Below are positions 26,439 through 63,080 of a stretch of 64,000 nt of DNA, in pieces. The notes beneath the pieces are model-generated. The model worked only from the letters and a program-made list of their open reading frames with translations. It had not been told where the DNA came from and did no database searches. A program made the position numbers and the translations under genes. The DNA is from Acidobacteriota bacterium (GTDB taxonomy: Bacteria > Acidobacteriota > UBA6911 > RPQK01 > JAJDTT01). The stretch covers positions 4,960,001 to 5,024,000 of the forward strand of contig CBDCJH010000002.1 of assembly GCA_965217775.1 (NCBI GenBank), given 5' to 3'. Numbering within the stretch: the stretch's first letter is position 1; every line of letters begins with the position of its first letter.

Positions 26439-27605
26439 ATGGCCAAGACGCGGGAACGGCGCCGGCCGAAGTCCATGCAATCACTCTGCCGCAGCGCCGC
26501 ACGCTTACGCGACCAAGTCAAGGGCCGGACCATCAGTTTTTCTCCCAAAGTCTTCATTCCCCTGACCCGCCTCTGCCGCGACCGTTGCGGCTACTGTGCC
26601 TTCCGGCAGGATCCCAATGATGAGTTCCCACCCTACATGACCCCGGCCCAGGTTCTCACCGTCGTTCGGCGGGGAGAAGAACTGGGCTGCCGCGAGGCCC
26701 TTTTCGTTTTGGGCGATCGCCCTGAGCGCAGCTACCCGCGAGCGCGCCGCTGGCTGCGTCAGCACGGATACGACAGCACCATCGAGTATCTCTACGACAT
26801 GTGTTCTCTGGTTCTGGAGGAGACCCGCCTCTTCCCGCACAGCAATCCCGGCATCCTCACTCGGCGCGAGTTGGCGGCCCTGAAGCAGGTCAACGTCTCC
26901 ATGGGCCTGATGCTGGAAAGCACGAGCCGTCGACTCTCCGAACCGGGAGGGCCGCATTATCGGAATCCAACCAAGGATCCCCGGCTTCGCCTCCGAGTGC
27001 TTCAGGACGCCGGCGAGCTGAAGATCCCTTTTACAACCGGCCTCCTCGTCGGAATCGGGGAAACCTTCCGGGAACGGATCGATTCCCTTCACCAGCTCCG
27101 GCGTCTCCAGAGCCGATACGGCCACCTGCAGGAGTTCATCATCCAGAACTTCGTCCCCAAGCCGGGAACTCCCATGGAGGCAGTGCCGGGTGCAACCGGC
27201 CGGCAGATGATGGAAACCATCTCACACGCCCGTCTGATCCTGGGCGGCTCAGCCAACCTGCAGGCGCCCCCCAATCTCTCGGCCCACAACCTTCGCTATC
27301 TGAATTACCTGGATGCCGGAATCAACGACTGGGGCGGCATTTCTCCGCTGACCGTCGACTTCGTGAATCCGGAGGCGCCCTGGCCCCGATTTTCCGACCT
27401 GGCCCGCCAGACCGAATCGCGGGGCTTCCGGCTCAAAGCCCGCTATCCCGTCTATCCCGAATACATTCGAGGCCCTGCTTCATTCCTGCCCTCATCTCTG
27501 CGCTCCCGATTGCGATCCGAGGCGGACCCGGACGGGTATTTGCCGGTCGTCTTCTCCCGGGCGCATACCCCAGTTTCAGTCGGGGAGGTCACCGGTGCCA
27601 ACTGA
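26439..27605 (+). CDS. cofG: FO synthase subunit CofG (radical SAM)
   Basis: KVFIPLTRLCRDRCGYC, PHSNPG, SMGLMLE, FTTGLLVGIGET, GINDWGGISP. Confidence 0.93.
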   Translation: MAKTRERRRPKSMQSLCRSAARLRDQVKGRTISFSPKVFIPLTRLCRDRCGYCAFRQDPNDEFPPYMTPAQVLTVVRRGEELGCREALFVLGDRPERSYPRARRWLRQHGYDSTIEYLYDMCSLVLEETRLFPHSNPGILTRRELAALKQVNVSMGLMLESTSRRLSEPGGPHYRNPTKDPRLRLRVLQDAGELKIPFTTGLLVGIGETFRERIDSLHQLRRLQSRYGHLQEFIIQNFVPKPGTPMEAVPGATGRQMMETISHARLILGGSANLQAPPNLSAHNLRYLNYLDAGINDWGGISPLTVDFVNPEAPWPRFSDLARQTESRGFRLKARYPVYPEYIRGPASFLPSSLRSRLRSEADPDGYLPVVFSRAHTPVSVGEVTGAN

Positions 27606-28878
27606 TCCGGAGCGGGCGCTGAGCGGCGTTCGAATCGACGTCGCCCGTATCTTGGGCAACTCCCTGGAGGGGCGCGATCTGGCGGTTCCCGACATGGTCC
27701 GGCTGTTGGAGTGCCAGGGACCCGAGTTTCTCGCCCTGCTGCAAGCCGCCGACTCTCTGAGGCGCCGTTCCGTCGGCGATCAGGTGACCTATGTGGTCAA
27801 CCGAAACATCAATTTCACGAACGTTTGCGCCAAGAAATGCAGCTTTTGCGCCTTTAGCCGAACCTACCGCAGCGACGAAGGCTATTTGCTGCCCGTGTCT
27901 GAAATCGTTCGCCGGGCCCGGGAGGCGCGGCAATTCGGCGCGACGGAGGTCTGCATCCAGGCCGGCCTGCCTCCTGCCATGCCGGGAGACCTCTACATTC
28001 GAATCTGCCAAGCCGTGACCGACGCTCTTCCGGGCCTGCACGTCCACGCCTTTTCGCCGGAGGAGATCCTTTACGGCTCCCAGCGTTCCGGGATAGGGGT
28101 TCGAGATTACCTGGCGGAACTCCTCGACGCGGGAATCGGCAGCCTGCCCGGCACATCGGCCGAAATCCTGGACGACGATCTCCGCAACCTGATCTCGCCC
28201 GGACGCATCAGCAGCGGGGAATGGACCCGAATCATCTCGACGGCCCACTCCCTGGGCATCCGGACCTCCTCCACCATGATGTTCGGTCACCTCGAAACAC
28301 CGGTGCACATCGCAAGGCACCTGGCACACCTGAGAACCATCCAGCGCCAGACCGGCGGCTTCACCGAGTTCGTTCCCTTGGGCTTCGTCCATACCGAGAC
28401 ACCCCTGTTCCAGAGCCAGCGGCTGCCGAATCTCCGGCCCGGGCCCACGGGTTGGGAGGTTCTGAAGGTTCACGCCGTCTCCCGGCTGGCCCTGGACAAG
28501 GATATCCCCAACCTTCAGGTCTCCTGGGTCAAGGAAGGGATGAAGCTGGCTCAACTCTGCCTGGCAGCGGGTGGAAACGACCTGGGGGGCACGCTGATCA
28601 ACGAGAGTATCTCCACCGCCGCCGGGGCCGGCCACGGACAATTGGTGACCCCGGAAGAGCTGCATCGCCTGATTCGCGATGCGGGCAGAGTCCCGGCGGA
28701 ACGGAACACGCTCTACGGGACCCTGCGCGCCTTCACCGGCAGCGACGAAGACGGGACTCACCCTCTGGACTCCCTGCGGCCCGGCGACCGGAACCGTTTC
28801 GGCTCCTACGCCCAGTTGACCGGGTCGCGGCGGTTTCGCTTCAATCCGGGCGCAGCCCGGAGACATTCCCCGGATTGA
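27595..28878 (+). CDS. cofH: FO synthase subunit CofH (radical SAM)
   Basis: VTYVVNRNINFTNVC..CSFC, GATEVCIQ, PGTSAEIL, TEFVPL, QVSWVK, NDLGGTL.NESI. Confidence 0.93.
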   Translation: MPTDPERALSGVRIDVARILGNSLEGRDLAVPDMVRLLECQGPEFLALLQAADSLRRRSVGDQVTYVVNRNINFTNVCAKKCSFCAFSRTYRSDEGYLLPVSEIVRRAREARQFGATEVCIQAGLPPAMPGDLYIRICQAVTDALPGLHVHAFSPEEILYGSQRSGIGVRDYLAELLDAGIGSLPGTSAEILDDDLRNLISPGRISSGEWTRIISTAHSLGIRTSSTMMFGHLETPVHIARHLAHLRTIQRQTGGFTEFVPLGFVHTETPLFQSQRLPNLRPGPTGWEVLKVHAVSRLALDKDIPNLQVSWVKEGMKLAQLCLAAGGNDLGGTLINESISTAAGAGHGQLVTPEELHRLIRDAGRVPAERNTLYGTLRAFTGSDEDGTHPLDSLRPGDRNRFGSYAQLTGSRRFRFNPGAARRHSPD

Positions 28879-28929
28879 CTGCCAAGCCGATTCACCGGAT
28901 GCAGCCTGTCTGATGTAAAAGAGGCTCGG

Positions 28930-29685
28930 CTAACGAAACAGGTCCCGCTCCGGAGGCCGCACCAGGTTCGACCCGGCGCCAAGACCTTCTTCCAGCCGCA
29001 CACCCCGGACCAAGGCCACCGGCACCCGGCGCCGCTTTCCCATCACCAGTTCCGCCGCGGAGGCGATTTCGTCGGCACGCGCGATGCAGGTGGACTGAAG
29101 CGTTCGGCCGAACCCGTCCTTGCTTCCCCGATAGTCCGACAGCGGCATTCCTCCGGCCACGCCGATGGCCACGTTCACCTGCCCCTCGCGCCAGGGGCGG
29201 CCGAAAGTATCGGCGATGATCACTGCCAGGTCCACCCCCATCGTCTCAGTCAGACACGCCCTGATGCCGGCCGCGGAGCGGTCCGGGTGCTCCGGAAGCA
29301 AGGTGGCCATCCCCTCCGGACTGTTGGAGAGATCGACGCCGGCATTGGCGCACACGAACCCGTGCCTGGTTTCAGCCAGCAGCACGCCGCGATCCATTCT
29401 CACGATCCTCCGGCTCTCGGAGAGGGCCAATTCGACCACCCTGGGATCCCGGCCCCATTCACGCGCCCAGGAGTTGGCCAGCGGCGACGGGGTGACCGTC
29501 GCCAGAGGAACAGTCCGCCCCTCCGCCTTGGAAACGATCTTGTGGGCCAGCACCAGAATATCCCCTCGGCGGACCTGGACAGGGATCCTCCTCAGCGCCT
29601 CCAGCAGCAGCGGGCCCAGAGCGTCCCCCGGTTTCACTTCGGGGAGTCCCGGGATGCCCAGGATGTGAACGCCGGTGTCACTCAT
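28930..29685 (-). CDS. cofE: Coenzyme F420-0:L-glutamate ligase (single domain)
   Basis: KIVSKAEG, ANAGVDLSN, DTFGRPWREG, DEIASAAELV, RDLFR; no C-terminal nitroreductase domain. Confidence 0.93.
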   Translation of the reverse strand: MSDTGVHILGIPGLPEVKPGDALGPLLLEALRRIPVQVRRGDILVLAHKIVSKAEGRTVPLATVTPSPLANSWAREWGRDPRVVELALSESRRIVRMDRGVLLAETRHGFVCANAGVDLSNSPEGMATLLPEHPDRSAAGIRACLTETMGVDLAVIIADTFGRPWREGQVNVAIGVAGGMPLSDYRGSKDGFGRTLQSTCIARADEIASAAELVMGKRRRVPVALVRGVRLEEGLGAGSNLVRPPERDLFR

Positions 29686-30352
29686 GAAGGTTCCTCACCT
29701 TTTCTGCCAGACGGCTGACGAGGCCACTCTCGGCGAGATAGTCCCTGGTCGCCGCCCCTCCCTCTCTCTGCCAGAACCGAACCAGGTCTTCGGGTCCATC
29801 CAGATCCAGACCGAACCGCGGGTTCGACAGCACGGTGGCAGGCACCCGTGCACGGCGGGCCTCTGCCAGATGCCGGCGCAGGCTGTCCCGGCCGAAACGG
29901 GACGGAAAGGCATCCGGCGGCATTCTCAACAGGGCATTGGTGCCCCGGCCGTCTCGCGAGGGGACCAGAAGAGCCGCCGGGGAAGCCAGCGGGTGGCCCA
30001 GCAGAGCGTCCACATCCCGCCCCTGGATGAGCGGGACGTCCAACGGCACCCGGAGAACACACGTCGCTCCTTGTTGGCGAAGTGCGGCGGCGCTCTCATC
30101 CACGGAGCGGCTCTCGGAGGATTGGCGCCGCTCCCGAATGAATCCCCATCGCCGGCGCGCGGCGTAGGCCGCAAGCTCCGGGTCCCGGCCTGCCACGACC
30201 ACCTTGTCCGGTGTTCCAGCGCCGGCCAGCGCCCTGCCCACATCCTCCAACATGGCCCAGACCAGCCCAATCCTTTCCCGGCGGGACAGCCACGGAGCCA
30301 TTCGCCGCTTGGCTTGGACGAGCTCCTTGACTGGTATCAGGACGACTTTCAC
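29678..30352 (-). CDS. cofC: 2-phospho-L-lactate/PEP guanylyltransferase
   Basis: IPVK....KRRM, MLEDV, GRGTNAL, FGRDS...H, DLDGPEDL. Confidence 0.88.
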   Translation of the reverse strand: MKVVLIPVKELVQAKRRMAPWLSRRERIGLVWAMLEDVGRALAGAGTPDKVVVAGRDPELAAYAARRRWGFIRERRQSSESRSVDESAAALRQQGATCVLRVPLDVPLIQGRDVDALLGHPLASPAALLVPSRDGRGTNALLRMPPDAFPSRFGRDSLRRHLAEARRARVPATVLSNPRFGLDLDGPEDLVRFWQREGGAATRDYLAESGLVSRLAEKVRNLHE

Positions 30353-31329
30353 GCCAACCGCAGCAGGGCGCGAGCCAGCGCCCGTTTCGCACCGGAGGTA
30401 TCCATGACGGTATTCCGAACCACGACCCGGACGCCCAGGCGCTCGATGGACGCAGCGCTGCCCGCATCGCGCTCATCCAATACGAAAACGTCCATGACAC
30501 CCCGATAGATCCGGGCAACGCCTTCGGCCGAGACCGGATGCCCCAGCTCCCTGAGCATTTTTGCCGCCGGCCCCTTGAGGGCGCGCCCGCCCACGATCGG
30601 ACTCACCGCTACCACCAGGCCCCGGCTTTCCATCACCGCCCGCCTGATCCCCGGGACCGCCAGAATGGGACCCACGCTGATAAAGGGGTTGCTGGGACAG
30701 ATGACGATGATCCGGGCATTTCGAATGACCTTCTCCACACCCGGCGCCGCACGCTGACAACTCAAACCAGTGTATTCGAAACCGTGAACCCGGGGTGCGC
30801 ACTTCTCCCTGACCAGATACTCCTGAAGATGAAGACGGCCGGCATCGGTCTCCACCAGAGTCGGATTGTAGCCTTCGGCCATAGGCAAAACTGAAGGCTC
30901 TATCCCGAACCCCTTGCAGATATGGGCGGTTACGGCGGCCAGGCCCCACCCCCGGTTCAGCCGGGACGTCCGCCACAGATGGGTTGCCAGATCCTGGTCT
31001 CCCAAGCCGAACCAGGTGTCAGCGCCCAAGCGTCCGAGGGCCTCCAGACAGCGGAATGTGTCGCCCTCGATGCCCCAGCCCCAAGTCCGGTTGGACAATC
31101 CCGCCAGGGTATAGGTGATGGTGTCGAGATCCGGACAGATCCGGAGCCCGAAGGCTTCCAGGTCATCCCCGGTGTTGACCACCACGGACAGGCGGCTCCC
31201 AAGCCCCTCCTGCGCCAAGCCCCAGACCAGTTTCGCGGCGCCGACGCCTCCGGCCAACGCCACCACGCGAGCGTCGTGCGATCCGCAGAGGCCGTCACCG
31301 ATCCCGACCGGACGAGGGGCTGCCGCCAC
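30349..31329 (-). CDS. cofD: 2-phospho-L-lactate transferase
   Basis: LAGGVGAAK, VNTGDD, CPDLDT, WFGLGDQDLATH, PSNPFISVGPIL, KGPAAK. Confidence 0.93.
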   Translation of the reverse strand: MAAAPRPVGIGDGLCGSHDARVVALAGGVGAAKLVWGLAQEGLGSRLSVVVNTGDDLEAFGLRICPDLDTITYTLAGLSNRTWGWGIEGDTFRCLEALGRLGADTWFGLGDQDLATHLWRTSRLNRGWGLAAVTAHICKGFGIEPSVLPMAEGYNPTLVETDAGRLHLQEYLVREKCAPRVHGFEYTGLSCQRAAPGVEKVIRNARIIVICPSNPFISVGPILAVPGIRRAVMESRGLVVAVSPIVGGRALKGPAAKMLRELGHPVSAEGVARIYRGVMDVFVLDERDAGSAASIERLGVRVVVRNTVMDTSGAKRALARALLRLA

Positions 31330-31335
31330 GAGTCG

Positions 31336-31995
31336 TCAAAGCCCCACGACACGAAAACGCGATTCGTGAACCCGGTATCGGCGATTGATGCCGATCAGAA
31401 GGGCACTCATTCGCTCCAGCGTCCGGGCCGCGTCGAGCCGGCCTGCGTCCACCGTGCGGACTCCCGGCCAGCGGTTCAGCACTTGCGCCACCTCACCTTT
31501 CCGGCGCGCCGAATTGCCACACACGAAGACATCACAGTCGAGAGGAGCGGCCACCTCCCCCAGAAGGCGGGCCGGAACCGTCTTCAGGGCCGACACCAAG
31601 GCGCTCGGATCAGGAAGGCCCGCAGCCAACTGCTCACTGCCGGAACCGGCCTCCAGGGGAACCATCTTTATCCGGCCGGCTTCGAACGCCACCGGCACCG
31701 TGACATCGACCCAGGTGGTCTCAGGCGCAACGTGCGGCGCACAACCGGACACCAGATCGGCGGCCCCGGCGAAAGGCGCCGCCAGAAAGAGGACCCCGGA
31801 CCGGGTCGCCGCCTCCAGGTTCAGCGCCCCCCGGATACGGGCGTCACCCCCCAGAAGACAATTCAACTCTGACGCCGTCCCGGCCGCCCGGGTCCGGCTA
31901 CGAGATCCCACAATGACCTCGAATCCCGCCTTGGCCAAACGCAGCACGATGCCCCGGCCCTCTTGACCGGTGCCGCCGAGCACACCCAGCTTCAC
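31336..31995 (-). CDS. npdG: NADPH-dependent F420 reductase (F420H2:NADP+ oxidoreductase, Fno)
   Basis: LGGTGQEGRG, IVGSR, N.EAA, GSGSEQ, VDAGRL..ARTLE, INRRY; leads the cofD-cofC-cofE operon. Confidence 0.88.
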   Translation of the reverse strand: MKLGVLGGTGQEGRGIVLRLAKAGFEVIVGSRSRTRAAGTASELNCLLGGDARIRGALNLEAATRSGVLFLAAPFAGAADLVSGCAPHVAPETTWVDVTVPVAFEAGRIKMVPLEAGSGSEQLAAGLPDPSALVSALKTVPARLLGEVAAPLDCDVFVCGNSARRKGEVAQVLNRWPGVRTVDAGRLDAARTLERMSALLIGINRRYRVHESRFRVVGL

Positions 31996-32270: not shown

Positions 32271-35200
32271 ATGAACTCGGTATCCGAATATCTCAAGGGC
32301 AAGACGCTGTTCATCACCGGAGCCACCGGCTTCCTGGGACAGTGCCTGGTCGAGAAAATCCTTTGGGCGGTACCGGACGTCGAGCGCGTCTACATCCTGA
32401 TCCGCCCGCGAACGAACCTGCGCGGCGCGGTCGTGACCGCCCAGATGAGGCTGGAACGGGAACTCCTCCGGTCCAGTTCCTTCGACCGCCTCAGGAGCAG
32501 GCTCGGTGACGGCTTTTCGGCCTTCCTGAAAGAAAAACTGGTCGCGGTTTCGGGCGACTTGTCCAGGGACGACCTGAACCTCGACGAGCAGACACGGCTT
32601 CGCCTGCAGGGCGAAACCGACATCGTCATCAACAGTGCCGCCGTCGTCTCCTTCGACGCCCCGCTGGACGAAGCCTACCACCTGAACGTCCTGGGAGCTC
32701 AGCGCGTCGCCCGGTTCGCCCAGTCCTGCGGCCGCTGCGTCCTGGTGCACGTCTCCACTGCGTATGTCTGCGGGGCTGCCGTCGGCTCCGTCCCGGAAAC
32801 GATTCCGGAGCTCTCGGATCCGGGCGATGGACCCTTCCCGGCGCGCGCCTTCAGCGACGTGGATCTGGACATCGAACGCATCGAGACGATAATCGCCACG
32901 GTCCGGGAGCGCGCCTATGCGCCCGGTCTCGAGCGCGAATTCGCGGCGGCGCTGCTGCGCCGGTTCAAGCGCTCGAAGCGGGGCCGCAACGTTCGCAGGC
33001 GGGAGAAGATCGAGAATCTCCGCAAGAAATGGATCCGGAACCAGCTCTCGCAGGAGGGGATGCGCTGGGCTCGCGAGCGGGGCTGGAACGACACGTACAC
33101 CTACACCAAGGCCATCGGCGAACAGATGGTCTTGCGGACCCGAAACGGGGCTCCGACCATCATCATCCGCCCCTCTGTTATCGAAAGCGGTTTTTCCGAG
33201 CCGAGTCCCGGATGGCTGGAGGGCCTTCGCATGGCGGACCCCCTCATCGCCGCCATCGGCAAGGGCCGCCTCCGGGCACTGCCTCTGAGCCCCAAGGTCA
33301 TCATCGACCTGGTGCCCGTGGATATGGTCGTGAACTCGCTGCTGGCGTCGCTTCCCGCGGCGGCCGCAACGGGCGTCCAGGTCTACCAGGTGGCCACCGG
33401 ATCCTGCAATCCCATCACACTGGGCTATCTCTACGATCTCATCTATCGCTATTTCAAGAGAAACCCCATGTTCGACAGGTCGGGGCGGCCGATCAACATC
33501 CGTTACCTCCGCTTCCCGAAGCCGGCCAGCTTCCGCTTGCAACATCGACTCCAGGCGCTGCCCCTGAACACGGCGGGCAGTATCTTGGACAAGCTCACCT
33601 TATTCCGCGCATTCGACGGCGCCCAGCGCTTCAACCGGCGCCTTTCGGCCCTGAGGGCCGCTCACGAGAAGTTGTATTACTACGGAGAAATCTACGAACC
33701 GTATCTGAACTTGAATTGCCGCTTCGGAGTGGAGAACACGCTGGGCCTTCTGGAGACGATGCCCCCCGAGGAGCGGGAAGCCTTCAACTTCGACGTGACG
33801 CGCCTGAACTGGCGCCACTACGTTCAAAACATCCACATCCCAGGGGTCAAGAAGTTCATTTTGAAGATGGAGGGAGCCGGAACGCTGGAACTGGATGTCC
33901 AACCGTCCGGCGAAGGCCGATCCGTCTCGACCATCAACGACCTCCTGGCATACAGCGCGTCCCGGTTCTCCGAGAAGACCGCGCTTCGGATGCAGCGCGA
34001 CGGTGAGTGGATCAGCTATACATACGCGGACCTGCAGCGCCGGGCCCGGACCGTCGGCCGGCAACTCCGGACCGAGGGTCTCGTCAAGGGAGACCGGGTG
34101 GTCCTTTTTGCGGAAAACCAACCGGACTGGGGCGCCGCGTACCTGGGCGCAGCTTCCCGGGGAGTCGTCGTCGTTCCCCTCGATTCCCAGGCGTGGCACC
34201 GTGAGGTCTGGTCTGTCGCCCGCTTCACCGAGGCCCGTGCCATCCTGGCTTCCGAGCGCACGATCGAGCGGCTGCCACCCGGCAGCCTGGCGCGGAATGA
34301 AGCCGGCGATGCCCCAATTCGACTCCTGAACATCAACGGCCTGGCCCAACCGTTCGACCTTCCGCAATACCCCGGAAGCACCGGAACGGCGGCCCCTGTT
34401 CCCGAGGCGCCCGGCGACCGCCCGGTGAAAGTCGAACCCGGCGATCCGGCTTCCATCATCTTCACCACCACCACGGCAGCGGACCCCAAGGGCGCCGTTC
34501 ACACCCATTCCGGCTTCCTCAGCAATCTTCACGGCATGAACCGTTATCTGGCGGCAGAGGAGACGGACCAGATCCTGTCGGTACTCCCTCTCTACCATGC
34601 TCTGGAATTTACCTGCGGGTTTCTGTCCCCCCTGTATGGGGGCGCGACCATCACCTACCTGCATTCCCTGAAGCCTCGAGTCATCCTGAAGACCATGCGG
34701 GAGACGGGCACCACCTGCATGTTGGGCGTCCCCAGTCTTTACGCTCTGATCCGGGACGACATCAACCGGCGCACCCTGCGCGCCTCCAAGTCACCTCTGA
34801 AATCCAACCTGGTGGCCAGGTCGCGCCAGCTCAGCAAGTCCATCGACAAGACCTTCGGCAAGAACCTGGGGCGCCAGATCTTCGCTCGGGTACACCAGGA
34901 ATTCGGGGGCAGGATTCGAGCTTTCGTCAGTGGCGGTTCTGCTCTGGGCGATGAACTCTACGATGACTTCAAGGCCTTGGGCCTGCCCATCTACGAGGGC
35001 TACGGGCTCACCGAGACCGCGCCGGTCCTCACGGTCAATCCGCTGAATCGAAGCCGCCGGGGCTCGGCCGGCAAGCCGTTGCCCGGGACCGAGTTGCGAA
35101 TCTACCGGGCCGATGACCGGGGAGAAGGCGAGATCATCGTCCGCACGCCCAGCCTCATGAAGGGCTACTACAAGAACCCGGCAGCCACCCGGGCCGCGCT

Positions 35201-36638
35201 GCGGGACGGCTGGTTTCACACCGGTGATCTGGGGTGGGTCGACGAAGACGGATACCTCTATATTACAGGGCGCAAGAAGAACGTCATCGTCACGGGAGCC
35301 GGGAAGAACGTCTATCCCGTGGACCTGGAGGCCATCTACCGCAACGTGCCGGCCGTCGAGGACATCTGCGTGGTGGGAACCCCCAAGGGACTGACCGAAG
35401 ACGTCCATGCCGTCATCCTGCCCAAGAAGGAGATATTGCGGGACGTGGCGACCGAGGAATGGCCGCGGGCCATGAAGCGGGCCACTCGCGCACTGGCCCG
35501 CCAGCTTCCGGGCTATCAGCGGCTGCAGCACATCCATCTTTCGGAAACCCCCCTCCCGCGGCGCAGTGACGGATCTCTCGCCCGCGACGTGATCCTGCAG
35601 AACGTCCGGCGGAACCTCGCCCGCTCTCAGGCACGCGGGGGCCCGGCGGCGCGACCCCAAGGCAGTGACGTCGCAACGGAGTTGACCCGGGAGTTGAGCC
35701 GGATCTCGGGGATTCCCTCAGCGGAAATCACTCCGGACTCCCATCTCTACACCGACGTGGGCCTGGATTCGCTCGCCGCCATGGAGCTGCTGATTCAGTT
35801 GGAGCATCGGTTCGGCATCTCGCTATCGGAGGAGCGCGTCGCTTCCCTGGTCCGCTTTGGCGATCTGGTCGATGCGGTGAAGGAGAGCAAGTCGGCACAT
35901 GTGACCGGCAAAGACGACACGGTCGCCGTCCGGTCTGCCTTGCCCTGGTCACAGCGCCCGCCCCTGGACCGCGCCCTCCTCGGCCTCTCCTTTTCGGCGC
36001 TGAGGCTCCTGTACGCGAGCTACTTTCGCCTGCGGCTGGGTTTTCCGGAACACCTTCCCCGTGAGGAGGCCTACATCATCGCCGCCAACCATTCCAGCCA
36101 TCTGGACAGCGGTGCCGTCATCGCCGCATTGGCGGGGGCGCTGGGACCAAGCCAAGCCAGGAAACTCCATCTTCTCGGGGCCCGCGACTACTTCTTCAAC
36201 AATCCCCTTCGCGCCTGGTTTTTCAGCACCTTTCTCAACGTGGTGCCCATCGAACGGGAGGAAACCTCGTTGGCGGGACTCCGTACCATCCAGGCGATCC
36301 TGCAGGAAGGCGAACCCATTCTCATCTTCCCGGAGGGGACGCGGTCCCGGACCGGCGAACTCCGATCCTTCAAACCGGGCCTGGGCCTCATCGCCAGGGA
36401 ACTCAGGGTGCCGATCGTCCCCACTCACATCGACGGCGCCTATCGAGCCTTCCCGGCGGGACGCTACCTTCCCCGGCCCGGACGGTTGACGGTGACCTTC
36501 GGCAAACCGATCACGACCGAGCAGTATTTCACGGACGGCGTCGAGGAGTCGCGAGTCCGCCTCTACCGAAAGATTGCCCGGGATGTCAGGGAGCACGTCG
36601 TGCGGTTGGGGGACGGGGGCCGGCACGAACCAGTTTGA
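32271..36638 (+). CDS. ElbD-like multifunctional lipid enzyme: fatty acyl reductase + AMP-binding + ACP + acyltransferase
   Basis: TGATGFLG and YTYTK (FAR), YEGYGLTE/HTGDLG/GRKKNVI (ANL), GLDSL (phosphopantetheine Ser), NHSSHLD and FPEGTRS (PlsC type); same domain order as Myxococcus ElbD. Confidence 0.85.
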   Translation: MNSVSEYLKGKTLFITGATGFLGQCLVEKILWAVPDVERVYILIRPRTNLRGAVVTAQMRLERELLRSSSFDRLRSRLGDGFSAFLKEKLVAVSGDLSRDDLNLDEQTRLRLQGETDIVINSAAVVSFDAPLDEAYHLNVLGAQRVARFAQSCGRCVLVHVSTAYVCGAAVGSVPETIPELSDPGDGPFPARAFSDVDLDIERIETIIATVRERAYAPGLEREFAAALLRRFKRSKRGRNVRRREKIENLRKKWIRNQLSQEGMRWARERGWNDTYTYTKAIGEQMVLRTRNGAPTIIIRPSVIESGFSEPSPGWLEGLRMADPLIAAIGKGRLRALPLSPKVIIDLVPVDMVVNSLLASLPAAAATGVQVYQVATGSCNPITLGYLYDLIYRYFKRNPMFDRSGRPINIRYLRFPKPASFRLQHRLQALPLNTAGSILDKLTLFRAFDGAQRFNRRLSALRAAHEKLYYYGEIYEPYLNLNCRFGVENTLGLLETMPPEEREAFNFDVTRLNWRHYVQNIHIPGVKKFILKMEGAGTLELDVQPSGEGRSVSTINDLLAYSASRFSEKTALRMQRDGEWISYTYADLQRRARTVGRQLRTEGLVKGDRVVLFAENQPDWGAAYLGAASRGVVVVPLDSQAWHREVWSVARFTEARAILASERTIERLPPGSLARNEAGDAPIRLLNINGLAQPFDLPQYPGSTGTAAPVPEAPGDRPVKVEPGDPASIIFTTTTAADPKGAVHTHSGFLSNLHGMNRYLAAEETDQILSVLPLYHALEFTCGFLSPLYGGATITYLHSLKPRVILKTMRETGTTCMLGVPSLYALIRDDINRRTLRASKSPLKSNLVARSRQLSKSIDKTFGKNLGRQIFARVHQEFGGRIRAFVSGGSALGDELYDDFKALGLPIYEGYGLTETAPVLTVNPLNRSRRGSAGKPLPGTELRIYRADDRGEGEIIVRTPSLMKGYYKNPAATRAALRDGWFHTGDLGWVDEDGYLYITGRKKNVIVTGAGKNVYPVDLEAIYRNVPAVEDICVVGTPKGLTEDVHAVILPKKEILRDVATEEWPRAMKRATRALARQLPGYQRLQHIHLSETPLPRRSDGSLARDVILQNVRRNLARSQARGGPAARPQGSDVATELTRELSRISGIPSAEITPDSHLYTDVGLDSLAAMELLIQLEHRFGISLSEERVASLVRFGDLVDAVKESKSAHVTGKDDTVAVRSALPWSQRPPLDRALLGLSFSALRLLYASYFRLRLGFPEHLPREEAYIIAANHSSHLDSGAVIAALAGALGPSQARKLHLLGARDYFFNNPLRAWFFSTFLNVVPIEREETSLAGLRTIQAILQEGEPILIFPEGTRSRTGELRSFKPGLGLIARELRVPIVPTHIDGAYRAFPAGRYLPRPGRLTVTFGKPITTEQYFTDGVEESRVRLYRKIARDVREHVVRLGDGGRHEPV

Positions 36639-37015: not shown

Positions 37016-39048
37016 ACGGAACTTCACTGCCGCTCAAGCCATAGTAAATCATTGAAATAGCGCGGTTTACGGTTCCTTAGCCCGAGCCTCCAACTGGATA
37101 TTTGTTTCCATGTACGGACTCGCATATTATGTCAGTATTCCCTTATATGGTAGGAGTATCAGTGATTGATATTGTTTCCATGTAAGAGGCCTCTCCACCA
37201 TGTCCTACCACGTCGATGTCATCCCCAACCGCAACAGCCCACCCGCCATCCTCTTCCGCCACGCCAAACGCGAGGGCAAGCGCATCCGCCGCACCACCCT
37301 CGCCAACCTCTCCAAGCTCCCCCCGGAGATCGTCGACGGCATCCGCGCCCTGCTCAAGGGGGGCCAAGTCTATCGCCCCCTCGACGATGACCTCGCCATC
37401 CGCCGCGCCCTTCCCCATGGTCATGTCGCCGCCCTCCTCGGTCTTGGCCGCCAACTCGGTCTCGAACGCCTCCTGCACCGCAAACGCAGCCGCAACCGCG
37501 ACCTTGCCCTCGCCGCCCTCGTCGCCCGGGTGCTCCAACCCGCCTCCAAGCTCGCCACCGCCCGGGGCCTGTCTCCGGAGACCGCCACCAGCAGCCTCGG
37601 CCCCGTCCTCGGCCTCGGTCCGGTCCGCGGCAACGAGATGCTTCAGATGCTCGACTGGTTGCTGAGCCGCCAAGTCTGGATCGAGAAGAGCTTGGCGCGG
37701 CGCCACCTGGAGGGCCGGACACTTTTGCTTTATGACGTCTCCTCCAGCTATCTCGAGGGGCGCTGCTGTTCCCTGGCCGCATTCGGCCACAACCGAGACG
37801 GCAAGAAAGGTAAGAAGCAGATCGTCTTCGGCCTGCTCTGCGCCGGGGACGGTTGCCCGCTGTCCGTGGAGGTGTTCCCGGGCAACACCGGGGATCCGAG
37901 CACGGTGGCGGCGCAGGTCAAGAAGATCCAGGGGCGCTTCGGCATCGAATCCATCGCTTTGGTCGGGGACCGCGGCATGCTCACCACGGCGCGGCTGCGC
38001 GAGGACCTTTCACCGGCCGGTCTGGCCTGGATCTCGGCCTTGAGAACGGGCGCCATCCGCAAGCTGATGCGGCCCCCAAAATCGGGCGGGAAGGGCGAGG
38101 AACCGGCGCCGTTGCAGCCGGGCGAGTTGGTTCCGGACGGGGTCGCGGAGATTCTGAGCCCGGATTTTCCCGGCGAACGGCTGCTGGTCTGCCTCAATCC
38201 CCGCTTGCGGCAGGAGCGGGCCCGCAAGCGCGAGGATCTGCTGTGCGCGACCGAGAAGATCCTGGAGACCATCGCCAGCGCCGTGCGCTCCCCCCACGCT
38301 CGGCTACGCGGCCAGGAGGCCATCAACCGCCGGGTGGGCCGGGACGTCAGCCGCAAGAAGGTGGACAAACACTTCCTGATTGAAGTCACCGACGAGGACA
38401 TCCGCTGGTCGAGGCGGCAGGAGAAGATCGACGCGGAAGCGCGACTGGACGGCATCTACATCATTCGCACCAGCTTGGAGGCCTCCGACATCGGGGCTGC
38501 GGAGGCGGTGGAGGCGTACAAAAGCCTCTCCCAGGTCGAATGGGCGTTTCGCTCGCTCAAGACGGCGCAGCTGGCCCTGCGCCCGGTCTTCGTCTACAGC
38601 GAGGACCATGTGCGCGGGCACGTCTTTCTGTGCCTGCTGGCGTACTACCTGCAATGGCACCTGAGGCGGCGTCTGGCGCCGCTGCTGTTCGAGGAGGAGG
38701 ATCGTCCCGGGGCGCGAGCGTTGCGGACCTCACCGGTGGAAAAGGCAAAGGTGTCCGCGCGCACGAAAGCTAAGGCCGCGCGCAAGCAAACGGCTGAGGG
38801 GCTCCCCGTGCATAGCCTCCGGACGCTGCTGGCGGATCTCGGCACGCTCACCCTGAACCAGGTGACCCTGCCGGACGCTCCGGAGCATCCGTTTCCGATG
38901 TTCGCCAAGCCGACGCCGCTGCAGGCGAAGGTTTTCGAGCTGCTCGACGTCAACCCGACCCGATTTGTTGCCAGTAATTGGGCAGGTTGATTTCGTCTAT
39001 CTTCCTGACATACAAACGATTAGACGGATTTCGGAAGTGAAGTTCCGT
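37016..39048 (+). mobile_element. IS1634-family insertion sequence
   Basis: Perfect 13-bp TIR ACGGAACTTCACT / AGTGAAGTTCCGT, TTAG duplicated on both sides (37012-15, 39049-52), single transposase ORF. Confidence 0.85.
37200..38990 (+). CDS. IS1634-family DDE transposase
   Basis: PNRNSPPAIL..TLANLS N-terminus, LYDVSSSY, VGDRGM, YKSLSQVEWAFRSLK, RPVF...HVRGHVFLC. Confidence 0.9.
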   Translation: MSYHVDVIPNRNSPPAILFRHAKREGKRIRRTTLANLSKLPPEIVDGIRALLKGGQVYRPLDDDLAIRRALPHGHVAALLGLGRQLGLERLLHRKRSRNRDLALAALVARVLQPASKLATARGLSPETATSSLGPVLGLGPVRGNEMLQMLDWLLSRQVWIEKSLARRHLEGRTLLLYDVSSSYLEGRCCSLAAFGHNRDGKKGKKQIVFGLLCAGDGCPLSVEVFPGNTGDPSTVAAQVKKIQGRFGIESIALVGDRGMLTTARLREDLSPAGLAWISALRTGAIRKLMRPPKSGGKGEEPAPLQPGELVPDGVAEILSPDFPGERLLVCLNPRLRQERARKREDLLCATEKILETIASAVRSPHARLRGQEAINRRVGRDVSRKKVDKHFLIEVTDEDIRWSRRQEKIDAEARLDGIYIIRTSLEASDIGAAEAVEAYKSLSQVEWAFRSLKTAQLALRPVFVYSEDHVRGHVFLCLLAYYLQWHLRRRLAPLLFEEEDRPGARALRTSPVEKAKVSARTKAKAARKQTAEGLPVHSLRTLLADLGTLTLNQVTLPDAPEHPFPMFAKPTPLQAKVFELLDVNPTRFVASNWAG

Positions 39049-39907: not shown

Positions 39908-40576
39908 TCAGTGCGCCGCCGGTTTCCGCTTCCAGGCAAATTTACCGATCAGCGGCACGAAAATACATCGCTCCGCGCGTTTGGTGCGATATCCGTCTCC
40001 ACTTCGGGTCACGATGTGAAGGACCTGCGAACGATCCCGCCCCACCGGGATCACCAAGCGCCCCGTTTCGCTCAACTGCTGCAACAGGGGCTCGGGGATT
40101 CCGGGAGATGCTGCCCCGACGATGATGCTCTCGAACGGTGCGAATTCTTCCCAGCCCAGCGTCCCGTCGGCCACACTCGCCTGGACGTCCTGATACCCCA
40201 GCTCGTCGAGCCGAGCCGCCGCCTGGTGGGCCAGCTCCGGAATCCGTTCCACGGTGAAGACCTGGGCCTTCATGCACGCAAGCAACCCAGCCTGATATCC
40301 GCTTCCGGTCCCTATCTCCAGGACACGGTCGCCCGGGGACACCCTCGCCGCTTGAACCATGGCGGCAATCATGTAGGGCTGACTGACGGTCTGATCATGG
40401 CCGATGGGGATGGGGCGGTCATCGTAGGCCCGCTCAACCCATTCGTCAGGCACGAAACGATGACGAGGGACTCCCAGGAACGCCTTCAACATCCTGCGGT
40501 CCCGGATGCCTCGGGCTCTCAGTTGCTGCTCCACCATCTTGCGGCGTTCCGGGCCGTAGGATGCAGATCGTTTCAT
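39908..40576 (-). CDS. pcm: Protein-L-isoaspartate O-methyltransferase
   Basis: VPRHRFV, QTVSQPY, LEIGTGSGYQ, FVPLIG. Confidence 0.95.
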   Translation of the reverse strand: MKRSASYGPERRKMVEQQLRARGIRDRRMLKAFLGVPRHRFVPDEWVERAYDDRPIPIGHDQTVSQPYMIAAMVQAARVSPGDRVLEIGTGSGYQAGLLACMKAQVFTVERIPELAHQAAARLDELGYQDVQASVADGTLGWEEFAPFESIIVGAASPGIPEPLLQQLSETGRLVIPVGRDRSQVLHIVTRSGDGYRTKRAERCIFVPLIGKFAWKRKPAAH

Positions 40577-41355
40577 GCCGCTCCCCGGCAGAATGTTCTC
40601 CGATGCACCGGCGTCGTCCCATACTTCTCGATTGCCCGGCGGTGCTGTCTGGTCGGGTAGCCCTTGTGACGGGCGAATCCATATTCCGGATACACCCGGT
40701 CCAGCTTCATCATGAGCCGATCCCGATGGGTCTTCGCCAGGATCGATGCCCCGGCGATCGAGAAATGCCTGCGGTCCCCGCCGACGCAGGTCTCCTGCGG
40801 GATTTCGAGGCCCGGAATCCGGCGGCCGTCCACCAGTGCGATCTCCGGCGCCGGCTGGAGAACTGCGACGGCCCGCTTCATGGCCAGAAGACCGGCATGG
40901 AAGATGTTCAACCGGTCGATCTCCGGCACCGACGCCTCTCCGATCCCCATGGCGACCGCGTCTCGGGCAATGATCCCGGCCAGCTCGTCGCGGCGGGCGC
41001 TCGAGAGTCTCTTGGAGTCGTCCATGCCGCAGATTTCAGTGCCCGGCTCGAAGATCACCGCGGCAGCGACGACCGGTCCCGCCAGCGGGCCCATGCCGGC
41101 TTCGTCGACTCCGGCGACCCGTGCGGTTCCGCCACGCCACAGCCCGCGCTCCTTCTCCAGCATCGAATTCAACCGGCGTCTCTCCGCTCGGGCCGAGGCC
41201 CGCGCGCGCTCCAAGCGACGCCCAAGACGCCGCACGCCGACTCTCGGGTCCCGCGCCAAGGCGGACAACACCGCGGAAGTCACCCGGATTTCGCCGGAGG
41301 CAAGCGCTTCCCTTATTTGGGACAGGGTCAGCCGAGACAGCTCCAGTGCCACCAT
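40573..41355 (-). CDS. rnhB: Ribonuclease HII
   Basis: GVDEAG.GPLAGPV, DDSKRL, IAGASILAK, HKGYPT, HRRTF. Confidence 0.95.
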   Translation of the reverse strand: MVALELSRLTLSQIREALASGEIRVTSAVLSALARDPRVGVRRLGRRLERARASARAERRRLNSMLEKERGLWRGGTARVAGVDEAGMGPLAGPVVAAAVIFEPGTEICGMDDSKRLSSARRDELAGIIARDAVAMGIGEASVPEIDRLNIFHAGLLAMKRAVAVLQPAPEIALVDGRRIPGLEIPQETCVGGDRRHFSIAGASILAKTHRDRLMMKLDRVYPEYGFARHKGYPTRQHRRAIEKYGTTPVHRRTFCRGAA

Positions 41356-41461
41356 GCAGTTCGCCACTCCAGCCGATTCAGGCACACATGAGCTTAGCAG
41401 CCCGGACACCGGCAGGCAGGCAATGTGTCGGGTGTCCGCAACTCCATTATAATGCCCCGTT

Positions 41462-42211
41462 GTGAACACCGGAAATATCGGCCTCCTGGGCTTTGGGCGC
41501 TTCGGACAACTAGTCTACCGCCACCTCCCCGCCGGCAAGGTCGCCGGCGTATTCGACCAGGATCCCGCAAAACTGGCCAGGCTGTCCGATGGCGCCACCC
41601 TGGAGCAGGTGCTCACGGCCAAGTACATCATTCTCGCCACCCCAATCTCCGCCATCGATGCCGTCTGCAAACAGATTTCTCCGGTCCTCAGAACCGGCCA
41701 AGTGGTCGTGGACACCTGCAGCGTCAAACAATATCCCGTCGACTGCATGTTGTCCTTGCTCCCCGCCGGGATTCAGATTTTGGGCACCCACCCCCTCTTC
41801 GGGCCCGACAGTGGCAGGAATGGGATCGGAGGCATGAAGATCGCCGTTTGTCCGGTGCGAATCGACTCTGCGAATTACGGCTGCATACGCGCCTTTCTCC
41901 GCGGCCTCGGCTTGGAGATCATCGAGACGACGCCGCGGGAGCACGACCGCAGACTCGCTCGCACCCAAGCCATATTCCATCTGATCTCCCAGGCGCTGAA
42001 GGAGTTGGATTGGCGGGGGCAGCGACTCTCCACACCGGGCCCGGCTGCTTTCTATCGGCTGGCCGAAACCGTTCAGAACGACACGGCAGAGCTGTTTCTG
42101 GACATGGAGCGGCGCAACCTCTACGCCCGCGCGTGCCGACGACGGTTCATCGGCAAACTGGTCGAGATCGACGAACTTCTCTCCCGGGGCGAGACGTCCG
42201 GGCCGGCTTGA
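41462..42211 (+). CDS. tyrA: Prephenate/arogenate dehydrogenase
   Basis: GFGRFG, DTCSVK, THPLFGP, EHDR...TQAIFH. Confidence 0.85.
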   Translation: MNTGNIGLLGFGRFGQLVYRHLPAGKVAGVFDQDPAKLARLSDGATLEQVLTAKYIILATPISAIDAVCKQISPVLRTGQVVVDTCSVKQYPVDCMLSLLPAGIQILGTHPLFGPDSGRNGIGGMKIAVCPVRIDSANYGCIRAFLRGLGLEIIETTPREHDRRLARTQAIFHLISQALKELDWRGQRLSTPGPAAFYRLAETVQNDTAELFLDMERRNLYARACRRRFIGKLVEIDELLSRGETSGPA

Positions 42212-61121: not shown

Positions 61122-63080
61122 ATGAGCGAGAGAGAAGGAACCATATCTGCATTGATGACGGAGGATCGGCGGTTCTCCCCTGCCCAGGAGTTCACCGCCC
61201 AGGCGAACTGGAGCGACCCGGAGGTCTATCAGCGGGCCCTGTCGGACCCGGAAGGCTTCTGGAGCGAGATGGCCCAGGCCATCGACTGGTTTGAGCCCTG
61301 GAGCTCGGTTCTGGAGTGGGACCCGCCCACCACGAAGTGGTTCCTTGGGGCCAAGGTCAACGTTTCCTACAACTGCGTCGACCGGCATCTGGCGACGTGG
61401 AGAAAGAACAAGGCGGCCATCATCTGGGAAGGTGAGCCGGGTGACACCCGGGTCCTCACCTACCAGGACCTGCACCGCGAGGTGAATCGTTGCGCGGCGG
61501 CCATGAGGCGGCTGGGGATCGAAAAGGGTGACCGCGTGGCGCTCTATCTGGGGATGGTGCCGGAACTGCCGATCGCCATGCTGGCCTGTGCGCGGCTGGG
61601 CGCGCCCCACACCGTTGTGTTTGGCGGCTTCAGTCCCGAGTCGCTCCGCGACCGCATCGTGGATTGTCAGGCCAAGCTCCTGGTCACGGCCGACGGCGCG
61701 TGGCGCCGGGGAAAAGTGGTGGAGCTGAAAGAGAACGCCGATCGAGCATTGGACGGTTGCCCGGGCATCGAGAATGTCCTGGTGGTGAACCGCGTCGCCT
61801 CCCCCGAGCAGGTTTCCATGGTGAAAGGACGGGATCGATGGTGGCATGCCGAGATGGAGGCGAGCGGGACGGAAACCGTCGAGCCCGAGTCGCTGGACAG
61901 CGAGCACCCCCTGTACATCCTGTACACCTCGGGGACGACGGGGAAGCCGAAGGGCCTGCTCCATACCACCGGGGGTTACCTGGTCGGCGTCCACACCACC
62001 GCCAAGTACGTATTCGACCTGAAGGAAAACGACACCTATTGGTGCGCTGCCGATGTGGGGTGGGTCACCGGGCACAGCTACATCGTGTACGGTCCTCTCT
62101 CCAACGGCGCCACCTCCATCATGTACGAAGGGGCGCCCGATTACCCTGGGAAGGACCGTTTCTGGCAGATCATCGAGAAATACCGGGCCAACATTCTGTA
62201 TACGGCCCCGACCGCGATCCGGGCGTTCATGAAGTGGGGAACGGAGTATCCGGCAGGCCACGATCTGAGCTCACTCCGGCTCCTGGGGACGGTGGGAGAG
62301 CCCATCAACCCGGAGGCCTGGGTCTGGTATCGGGACCATATCGGTTCCGGTCGGACCCCGGTGGTCGACACCTGGTGGCAGACGGAGACGGGCATGACGC
62401 TCATCACTCCCTTGCCGGGGGTGACGGTCTTGAAGCCCGGGTCGGCAACCTTTCCCTTTCCGGGAGTCGAGGCCGACATCGTGGACGAAGCCGGAGAGTC
62501 GGTGCCTCTCGGAGGAGGTGGGTATCTGGTGCTGAAACGCCCCTGGCCGGCCATGGCCCGAACCATCTGGGGCGATCCGGCGCGATGGCACGATCAGTAT
62601 TGGTCACAATATCCCGGAATCTACTTCACGGGAGACGGGGCCAAGCGGGATGAGGACGGCTACTTCTGGTTACTGGGCCGCGTGGACGATGTCCTGAACG
62701 TGGCCGGTCACCGCATCGGGACCATGGAGGTGGAAAGCGCACTGGTGAGCCACCCCAGCGTTGCCGAAGCGGCCGTTATCGGCATCACCCACGAAATCAA
62801 GGGTCAGGCGATCGGCGCGTTCGTCACTCTCCGTGGAGATCAGACGGCGACGCCGGAGCTGGTCGCTGAACTCAAGCTCCACGTGGGAGAAAAGATCGGA
62901 CCCATTGCCCGTCCCGACACCCTGATCCCGACCGGGGAGCTGCCCAAGACCCGCAGCGGAAAGATCATGCGGCGCCTGCTCCGCGACATCGCCGAGGGCC
63001 GGGTCGTCGGCGACACTACGACACTGCAGGACCCGGGAGTCCTGGACGCCATCAAGGACGAATACGAAGAGAGCGAGTAA
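61122..63080 (+). CDS. acs: Acetyl-CoA synthetase
   Basis: [42 protein letters not shown]. Confidence 0.97.

Follow-up and report, generated by a model that had tools for sequence, protein, structure and literature searches.

An ElbD-like protein of an Acidobacteriota bacterium and its relatives in several phyla share a conserved ligase domain with altered ATP-handling motifs

The gene described here lies in a stretch of 64,000 nucleotides (positions 4,960,001 to 5,024,000 of contig CBDCJH010000002.1, assembly GCA_965217775.1, Acidobacteriota bacterium), which was analyzed at its full length and is called the window below. It encodes an ElbD-like protein, whose frame was translated on the forward strand without an internal stop and in which four parts follow one another: a fatty acyl reductase (FAR), a ligase of the ANL superfamily, an acyl carrier protein (ACP) domain, and a PlsC-type acyltransferase (Table 1). 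In the Pfam search, the reductase part matched NAD_binding_4 at aa 15-356 (E 3e-62) and Sterile at aa 450-532 (E 3e-14). The ANL fold and profile were present in the ligase (PF00501, E 1e-69; TM up to 0.85 when the AlphaFold2 model, pLDDT 88.9, was compared with ANL structures by Foldseek), and the match to AMP-binding_C at aa 1019-1092 was weak (E 6e-4, below the Pfam cut-off).

An earlier note, made from the sequence alone, had read the phosphate-binding loop (P-loop, A3) of the ligase as FTTTTAADPKG and its A10 motif as PRRSDGSL, lacking the Lys. Both readings were borne out: the loop occupies aa 731-741 and PRRSDGSL aa 1096-1103 (nt 35556-35579), the two falling within 34455-35590. Ser1102 takes up the A10 column, where 153 of the 154 canonical sequences have Lys. 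The phmmer alignment placed 'iifttttaadpkgavhth' on 'imytsgttghpkgvvhth' of FadD13 (3r44, Mycobacterium tuberculosis), so that, relative to YTSGTTGHPKG, neither P-loop glycine is present (T734 and A737 instead) and A736 replaces one threonine; S to T733 is the further change against the canonical loop. The ANL A3 signature [ST][ST]G[ST][TS]GxPKG was accordingly unmatched by T-T-T-T-A-A-D-P-K-G, and the A5 (YGxTE), A7 (TGD), and A8 (GRxK) signatures were all matched. The motifs that the note had listed as retained were found throughout the protein (YGLTE, TGDLG, GRKK at 1000, the reductase YxxxK as YTYTK at 276-280, the carrier DSL, the acyltransferase HxxxxD within NHSSHLD at 1273-1279, and FPEGTRS at 1353), as was the canonical loop in the acs gene of the window (61122-63080), at 61923-61955. 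The P-loop, which the note had described as lost, is modified rather than missing, with F731, T732, P739, K/R740, and G741 retained. Asp738, just before PKG, was considered as a sign of ATP exclusion and rejected: the position is D or E in 93% of the clade described below, Asp is frequent there in canonical enzymes as well, and the acidic residue is therefore no part of the anomaly.

The A3 loop binds the pyrophosphate (PPi) as it leaves and orients the beta- and gamma-phosphates of ATP (PMC11255334). The A10 Lys is one of the residues listed as fully conserved throughout the superfamily, the loop glycines are 97% and 93% conserved, and mutations of the P-loop Gly and Pro severely inhibit activity (PMC6122825).

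The substitutions were shared by the relatives of the protein. It was compared with its 119 best homologs from a search of 5.8 billion proteins (n = 120; 57-94% identity in the ligase part), the closest named ones being annotated 'AMP-binding protein' in uncultured Acidobacteriota and Gemmatimonadota. The second P-loop glycine was kept in none of the 120 (V in 95, A in 21, S in 4) and the first in 75, and the A10 column held Lys in 11 (E in 44, S in 19, A in 14, G in 9, others in the rest). A5 E915, A7 D986, A8 R1001 and K1003, and loop P739 and G741 were each found in 120/120, A5 T914 in 119/120, and loop T735 in 118/120. Outside the ligase, the reductase Y276 and K280 showed no variation in 46 clade members, in which carrier D1166 and L1168 were also invariant and S1167 was present in at least 90%.

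All 41 genomes searched within the order, which represent 16 families and 22 genera and include an unpublished one, contained a full-length ortholog, at 53-93% identity; two of the orthologs were split, by a contig end and by one TGA, respectively. In the 29 orthologs that were aligned (the unpublished one left out), the second glycine was never present, the A10 Lys occurred in two, and the acyltransferase motifs were retained, conservative variants included. Mean pairwise identity across these orthologs was highest, among five parts of the protein, in the ligase N-terminal subdomain (0.66). The fifth place of A8 is Asn (N1004, giving GRKKN; nt 35280-35282) in all eight members of the genus of the window and Asp in 19 of the 21 other orthologs, the remaining two having Q (L094) and E (L107). 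With GRKKN in A8 and Thr at the first P-loop glycine, this genus thus departs furthest of all clade members.

The ratio of non-synonymous to synonymous substitution rates (dN/dS) was estimated per domain from the 28 pairs that the eight same-genus sequences form (dS averaging about 0.33). It was 0.174 for the reductase, 0.144 and 0.115 for the N-terminal and C-terminal subdomains of the ligase, 0.173 for the carrier, and 0.139 for the acyltransferase. The loop peptide was identical in the eight sequences, among which 6 of its 11 codons vary synonymously. For the ligase domain, relaxed selection is excluded.

To place the clade, a diverse set of 150 relatives was taken from 1.84 billion cluster representatives and extended to 488 proteins by two further searches, and a tree was built from 292 non-redundant ligase domains after the columns of the P-loop and A10 had been masked. 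Groups set by the two counted columns and clades of the motif-masked tree gave the same result. An outside group of 154 leaves, comprising stand-alone ligases, fusions of adenylation, carrier, and acyltransferase domains (A-ACP-AT), and FAR-containing ElbD proteins, had the second glycine in 143 and the A10 Lys in 153. The remaining 138 leaves formed a clade without that glycine (support 0.997). Within it, a middle group of 61 leaves (names from Planctomycetota, Methylomirabilis, Verrucomicrobiae, and Armatimonadota) had replaced the second glycine, by V in 33 and L in 18. The inner variant clade of 77 leaves (support 0.993) includes the protein of the window, which was placed via its nearest representative. 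Its A10 column took 14 states (K19, E17, A9, G7, Q5, R5, S4, and others), and 7 of the 19 Lys carriers were basal sequences in which the rest of the A10 motif was complete. Named members belong to Acidobacteriota, Gemmatimonadota, and Poribacteria, with one metagenome-assembled genome (MAG) each from Armatimonadetes and Nitrospinota. At least seven variant-type loci were also present among the matches listed in a scan of genome contigs, a mixed sample from which names and no counts were taken.

Conservation was lost selectively in the variant clade. Among 75 columns conserved at 85% or more in the 154 outside sequences, 62 stayed at or above 70% and 13 dropped below; 8 of these 13 sit in the P-loop and A10 stretches, which contain 14 of the 75 (odds ratio 15, Fisher p 1.5e-4, both descriptive because the sequences are kin and not independent). 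The other five were conservative swaps (L/F, P/A, V/A, I/L, E/D). Five conserved basic residues in the A10 region of canonical FAR-type ElbD (n = 59: K1083 in 44, K1086 in 52, R1101 in 57, K1102 in 59, K1104 in 51) correspond in the variant clade to Q/H, Q, G, a variable position, and D, and the middle group lacks the first three. The net charge of the C-terminal subdomain was +3.2 in canonical FAR-type proteins, +1.0 in the middle group, and +0.1 in the variant clade. Over the A8 stretch, the mean frequency of the top residue was 0.87 in the variant set versus 0.75 in the canonical FAR-type set. R810, R833, R/K929, H1046, and H1089 are newly conserved in the clade, and no newly conserved Lys was found on the alignment of its C-terminal subdomain.

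The suggestion of the earlier note that the changes are not random decay is upheld by these results: the substitutions are clade-wide, the domain is under purifying selection, the changes cluster on two motifs of the ATP/PPi side, and A5, A7, and A8 are invariant. The two checks it had proposed agree, since a clade does share the substitutions and the ligase domain is as constrained as its neighbors (dN/dS 0.12-0.14 versus 0.14-0.17). The contrary case it had named, canonical close homologs with relaxed selection only here, is excluded by both.

ElbD of Myxococcus xanthus is said to take part in ether lipid biosynthesis as a product of the elbA-E operon, a finding attributed to Lorenzen et al. 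2014. The enzyme matches the protein of the window in its four domains and in their order, and its ACP and ligase (ACS) activities were confirmed in vitro (PMC9131029). The protein of the window is homologous to myxobacterial ElbD orthologs over its full length at 30-33% identity (tblastn, E 0), with residues 4-1449 aligned at 31% to the Archangiaceae locus L016 and further matches in Myxococcales (L013) and Enhygromyxa (L034). The CHARACTERISED form of ElbD is canonical, unlike the variant clade. ElbD proteins of Hyalangium, Myxococcaceae, Archangiaceae, Anaeromyxobacter, Polyangiaceae, Nannocystaceae, and Enhygromyxa salina carry [FY]TSGTTGxPKG and the A10 Lys, whereas the protein of the window has neither. 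In the family of the Archangiaceae genome, the gene was present in 79 of 81 sampled genomes (one of them unpublished); the best 29 loci had the canonical loop FTSGTTGxPKG in 29/29 and the A10 Lys in 27/29. The other two loci (among L126-L155) read LPRTAKRSVKR, possibly by a register shift. Sorangium sp. So ce176 (L038) has a canonical P-loop and Q in the A10 Lys column (LPRTASGQVKR). The protein P0143 was rejected as a myxobacterial representative, as it belongs to Methylomirabilis/Planctomycetota. The canonical state of M. xanthus ElbD itself is inferred from its family. Because the ligase activity of M. xanthus would thus belong to the canonical form and the protein of the window lacks both motifs, that activity is not transferable to the variant clade.

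Within the phylum, ElbD of Pyrinomonadaceae (Acidobacteriota subdivision 4) shares the architecture of the protein studied here and lies outside the variant clade, with canonical FTSGTTG[QR]PKG and LPRTATRKVKR. The Acidobacteriota therefore hold two kinds of ElbD. The Pyrinomonadaceae homologs have been discussed in connection with ether-bound iso-diabolic acid lipids (10.64898/2026.06.23.733905). A-ACP-AT fusions of about 900 aa, Aas-like and described as 'ElbD-like homologues lacking FAR1' (PMC9131029), are similar to the window protein in the ligase, ACP, and PlsC parts (32-35% identity); unlike it, they have a canonical P-loop and A10 Lys and no reductase.

Two further systems were compared with the window domain. 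The adenylation domain of module 3 of CysK, an NRPS (non-ribosomal peptide synthetase) for cystobactamid, is likewise an ANL domain beside a carrier with the A10 Lys missing; it failed to load substrate in vitro and was judged inactive, and its carrier is primed in trans (PMC7966384). It differs in being one module of one NRPS with a dedicated shuttle protein, while the variant clade consists of lipid enzymes that span phyla. In Acs and PrpE, removal of the charge of the A10 Lys prevents adenylation, and the thioester half-reaction is largely unaffected (PMC11255334). Acs or PrpE with that Lys acetylated or mutated is in the same state as is proposed for the window domain, but as a reversible regulation or a laboratory mutant, whereas the window clade would represent a fixed evolutionary state combined with an altered P-loop.

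The conformation of the predicted structure was dropped as evidence. The AlphaFold2 model of the variant A-ACP part (pLDDT 88.9) lay at a root-mean-square deviation of 4-6 Å from thioester-state structures (5x8f, 5bsr, 7thq, 6o6e, 3cw9, 3etc) versus 11-14 Å from ATP- or adenylate-state structures (4gxr, 4fut, 5bsm, 6k4d, 3r44, 1ult). The canonical Archangiaceae A-ACP part, modeled as a control (pLDDT 89.7), showed the same split (4g37, 3cw9, and 5bsr at 4-5 Å; 4gxr and 4fut at 11 Å). The control thus failed to DISCRIMINATE, and the conformation says nothing on the variant.

The elbD-like gene stands alone in the window. Upstream and divergent from it are genes for the cofactor F420 (26439-31995: two radical-SAM genes of CofG/CofH type on the forward strand, followed by CofE, CofC, CofD, and an F420-dependent NADP oxidoreductase on the reverse strand), and downstream is an open reading frame of 596 aa with a DDE transposase domain (37200-38990); this neighborhood varies within the genus. 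The F420 oxidoreductase and/or CofD also adjoin the ortholog in L113, L114, and L120. An isoaspartate methyltransferase (PCMT) and RNase HII (39908-41469) are neighbors of the ortholog in the sister genus as well (L113, L114), so synteny is conserved there. No elbB (HAD hydrolase) or elbE (NAD-dependent epimerase/dehydratase) neighbor was present in the window. Among 12 relatives examined for context, none had a separate ligase gene beside the ortholog, and five had a lipid kinase of YegS/DAGK type directly upstream, overlapping or within 30 nt (Table 1); this kinase is absent there in the genus of the window. In one of the 12 (L117:12100-14050), elbD is immediately followed by an ElbB-like HAD hydrolase and a Zn alcohol dehydrogenase, and in another (L116:13199-14959) an AGPS-like FAD-linked oxidase is found 1 kb downstream. 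Because such genes adjoin the ortholog in relatives, the lipid setting holds; diacylglycerol kinases beside elbD homologs have also been remarked elsewhere (10.64898/2026.06.23.733905). Two canonical A-ACP-AT paralogs (TSGTTGxPKG and A10 Lys) lie elsewhere in the genome; after the first of them come a radical-SAM gene and one for a metallophosphoesterase. A paralog of this type, about 900 aa long, occurred in at least 38 of the 41 order genomes, among the matches listed.

Table 1. Coordinates of the ElbD-like gene, its domains and motifs, and of related genes outside the window
Feature	Position	Strand	Basis or remark
ElbD-like gene, 1455 aa, FAR / ANL ligase / ACP / PlsC acyltransferase	32271..36638	+	open frame, Pfam, orthologs
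Fatty acyl reductase part, aa 15-532, with GATGFLG and Y276xxxK280	32313..33866	+	Pfam
ANL ligase N-terminal subdomain, aa 549-1000	33915..35270	+	PF00501 AMP-binding, aa 561-967, E 1e-69
Variant P-loop (A3) FTTTTAADPKG, aa 731-741	34461..34493	+	canonical form [YF]TSGTTGxPKG
A5 motif YGLTE, aa 911-915, kept	35001..35015	+	
A7 motif TGDLG, aa 984-988, kept	35220..35234	+	
A8 motif GRKKNVIVTGAGKNVYPVDLE, aa 1000-1020, thioester-state face, kept	35268..35330	+	
Ligase C-terminal subdomain, aa 1001-1121, basic patch gone	35271..35633	+	
Degenerate A10 LPRRSDGSLAR, aa 1095-1105, Ser1102 at the catalytic Lys site	35553..35585	+	
Acyl carrier domain, aa 1138-1202, D1166-S1167-L1168	35682..35876	+	PF00550 PP-binding, E 7e-12
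PlsC-type acyltransferase, aa 1257-1387, H1274xxxxD1279 and FPEGTRS	36039..36431	+	PF01553, E 6e-24
YegS/DAGK-type kinase	L113:12067-13122		
YegS/DAGK-type kinase	L114:11960-13033		
YegS/DAGK-type kinase	L117:6838-7722		
YegS/DAGK-type kinase	L121:6836-7729		
YegS/DAGK-type kinase	L122:12102-13112		
Canonical A-ACP-AT paralog	G000:C2:5062909-5065437	-	L109; outside the window
Canonical A-ACP-AT paralog	G000:C2:3683610-3685775	+	L110; outside the window

The variant clade lacks the Lys that is otherwise invariant in the ANL superfamily and the glycine-rich core of the P-loop; judged from sequence, the domain, which is under strong selection, probably works in another way. What has been lost (the P-loop core, the A10 Lys, and the surrounding basic patch) would lie on the triphosphate/PPi side and on the face used in the adenylation state, and what has been kept (A5 Thr-Glu, A7 Asp, and A8 Arg of the adenosine-phosphate pocket, the A8 thioester face, and the carrier serine) would serve the second step. 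Because of this selective pattern, the domain may be one that no longer makes acyl-AMP and still partners with a carrier. We consider it somewhat probable that the first half-reaction (fatty acid + ATP to acyl-AMP + PPi) is disabled in some form in the clade. The domain would then run in the mode of the second half-reaction only, passing a pre-activated acyl group to its own ACP without spending ATP. The likeliest donor would be acyl-CoA, acting through bound AMP, with the thioester step first reversed and then run again, and the reductase and acyltransferase parts would act on the resulting acyl-ACP. Such an ATP-independent hand-over from acyl-CoA via bound AMP is put forward tentatively, as rather less than probable. 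In its widest form, namely that a clade spanning Acidobacteriota, Gemmatimonadota, Poribacteria, and other phyla has turned an ANL domain into an ATP-independent acyl shuttle with bound AMP as a cofactor and CoA or another donor feeding its own carrier, the proposal is decidedly speculative.

Several observations weigh against the proposed mechanism or fit the alternative that the domain is still a working ATP-dependent acyl-ACP synthetase, in which the altered loop and some other residue or domain replace Gly and Lys, perhaps with a slower turnover that suffices for a scarce lipid. The loop has kept its length and both ends, with T735 in nearly all close homologs, and might still be able to hold phosphates. 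The A5 Thr-Glu pair is kept; it contacts the alpha-phosphate and Mg, and the Glu, which serves as a Mg ligand during adenylation, does not vary. The A10 Lys reappears sporadically in 12 inner leaves of the variant clade. The middle group lacks the second glycine yet has the A10 Lys in 61/61, so that the glycine change alone is compatible with Lys-dependent function and Gly-less loops can serve an enzyme that uses the Lys; in mycobacterial fatty acyl-AMP ligases, too, the second P-loop glycine is missing. The conserved ACP serine means that something loads the carrier, and no ligase gene adjoined the ortholog in the 12 relatives. We know of no ANL domain whose physiological role is the transfer of acyl groups from CoA to ACP via bound AMP. 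An active ligase would not, however, readily account for an A10 column that drifts through 14 states in 77 leaves together with the disappearance of four flanking conserved basic residues, which is unexpected if the adenylation-state face is in use; the Lys in question is described as fully conserved across the superfamily (PMC6122825), and no Lys is newly conserved in the C-terminal subdomain of the clade. This explanation is considered somewhat unlikely.

The ligase domain may instead be a dead scaffold, a pseudo-enzyme that keeps the four domains of the protein together or serves to bind the acyl chain, its ACP being primed in trans as in CysK module 3. That module is a precedent for an adenylation domain without the A10 Lys next to a trans-loaded carrier (PMC7966384), and the same combination, a missing Lys beside an intact DSL, is seen here. 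The two canonical A-ACP-AT paralogs in the genome, and their counterparts in most genomes of the order, could supply the loading activity, but these paralogs are so widespread that their presence is unspecific, and no partner gene is conserved beside the elbD-like gene in the 12 relatives. A scaffold would also have no need of AMP-contacting and A8 residues retained in 119-120 of 120 homologs, and no part of the protein is better conserved than the ligase. We regard this explanation as unlikely. Random decay, whether as a pseudogene or through a sequencing error private to this genome, could be read into the extra departures of the genus (T734 at the first P-loop glycine, N1004 in A8). It is refuted by the intact frame, the orthologs in 41/41 genomes, the loop peptide preserved over synonymous changes in eight sequences, and the low dN/dS, and its probability is negligible.

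The capacity of bacteria to make ether lipids is traced through elbD homologs, taken as marker genes, in Acidobacteriota, Poribacteria, and other phyla (10.64898/2026.06.23.733905). Neither the ElbD-like family nor its occurrence in Acidobacteriota and Poribacteria is a new finding; what is new is the split by the state of the ATP motifs. A search of the ElbD literature found no mention of such a split, the 2014 paper and the supplements of the preprint, which may bear on the point, being outside its scope; in the available text of the 2026 preprint (10.64898/2026.06.23.733905), the words motif, lysine, and inactive did not occur.

Proteins called ElbD accordingly fall into a canonical kind, found in myxobacteria and Pyrinomonadaceae, an intermediate kind, and the variant clade, and the sole biochemistry comes from the canonical Myxococcus enzyme. 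If the variant proteins do not adenylate, the clade would be a natural, selected ANL domain locked out of the first half-reaction, and pathway models as well as inferences from gene to lipid for these phyla would need revision. If the domain is in addition an acyl shuttle, two distinct biochemical routes would stand behind the genes that are lumped together as 'elbD' in surveys of ether lipids and brGDGTs (branched glycerol dialkyl glycerol tetraethers).

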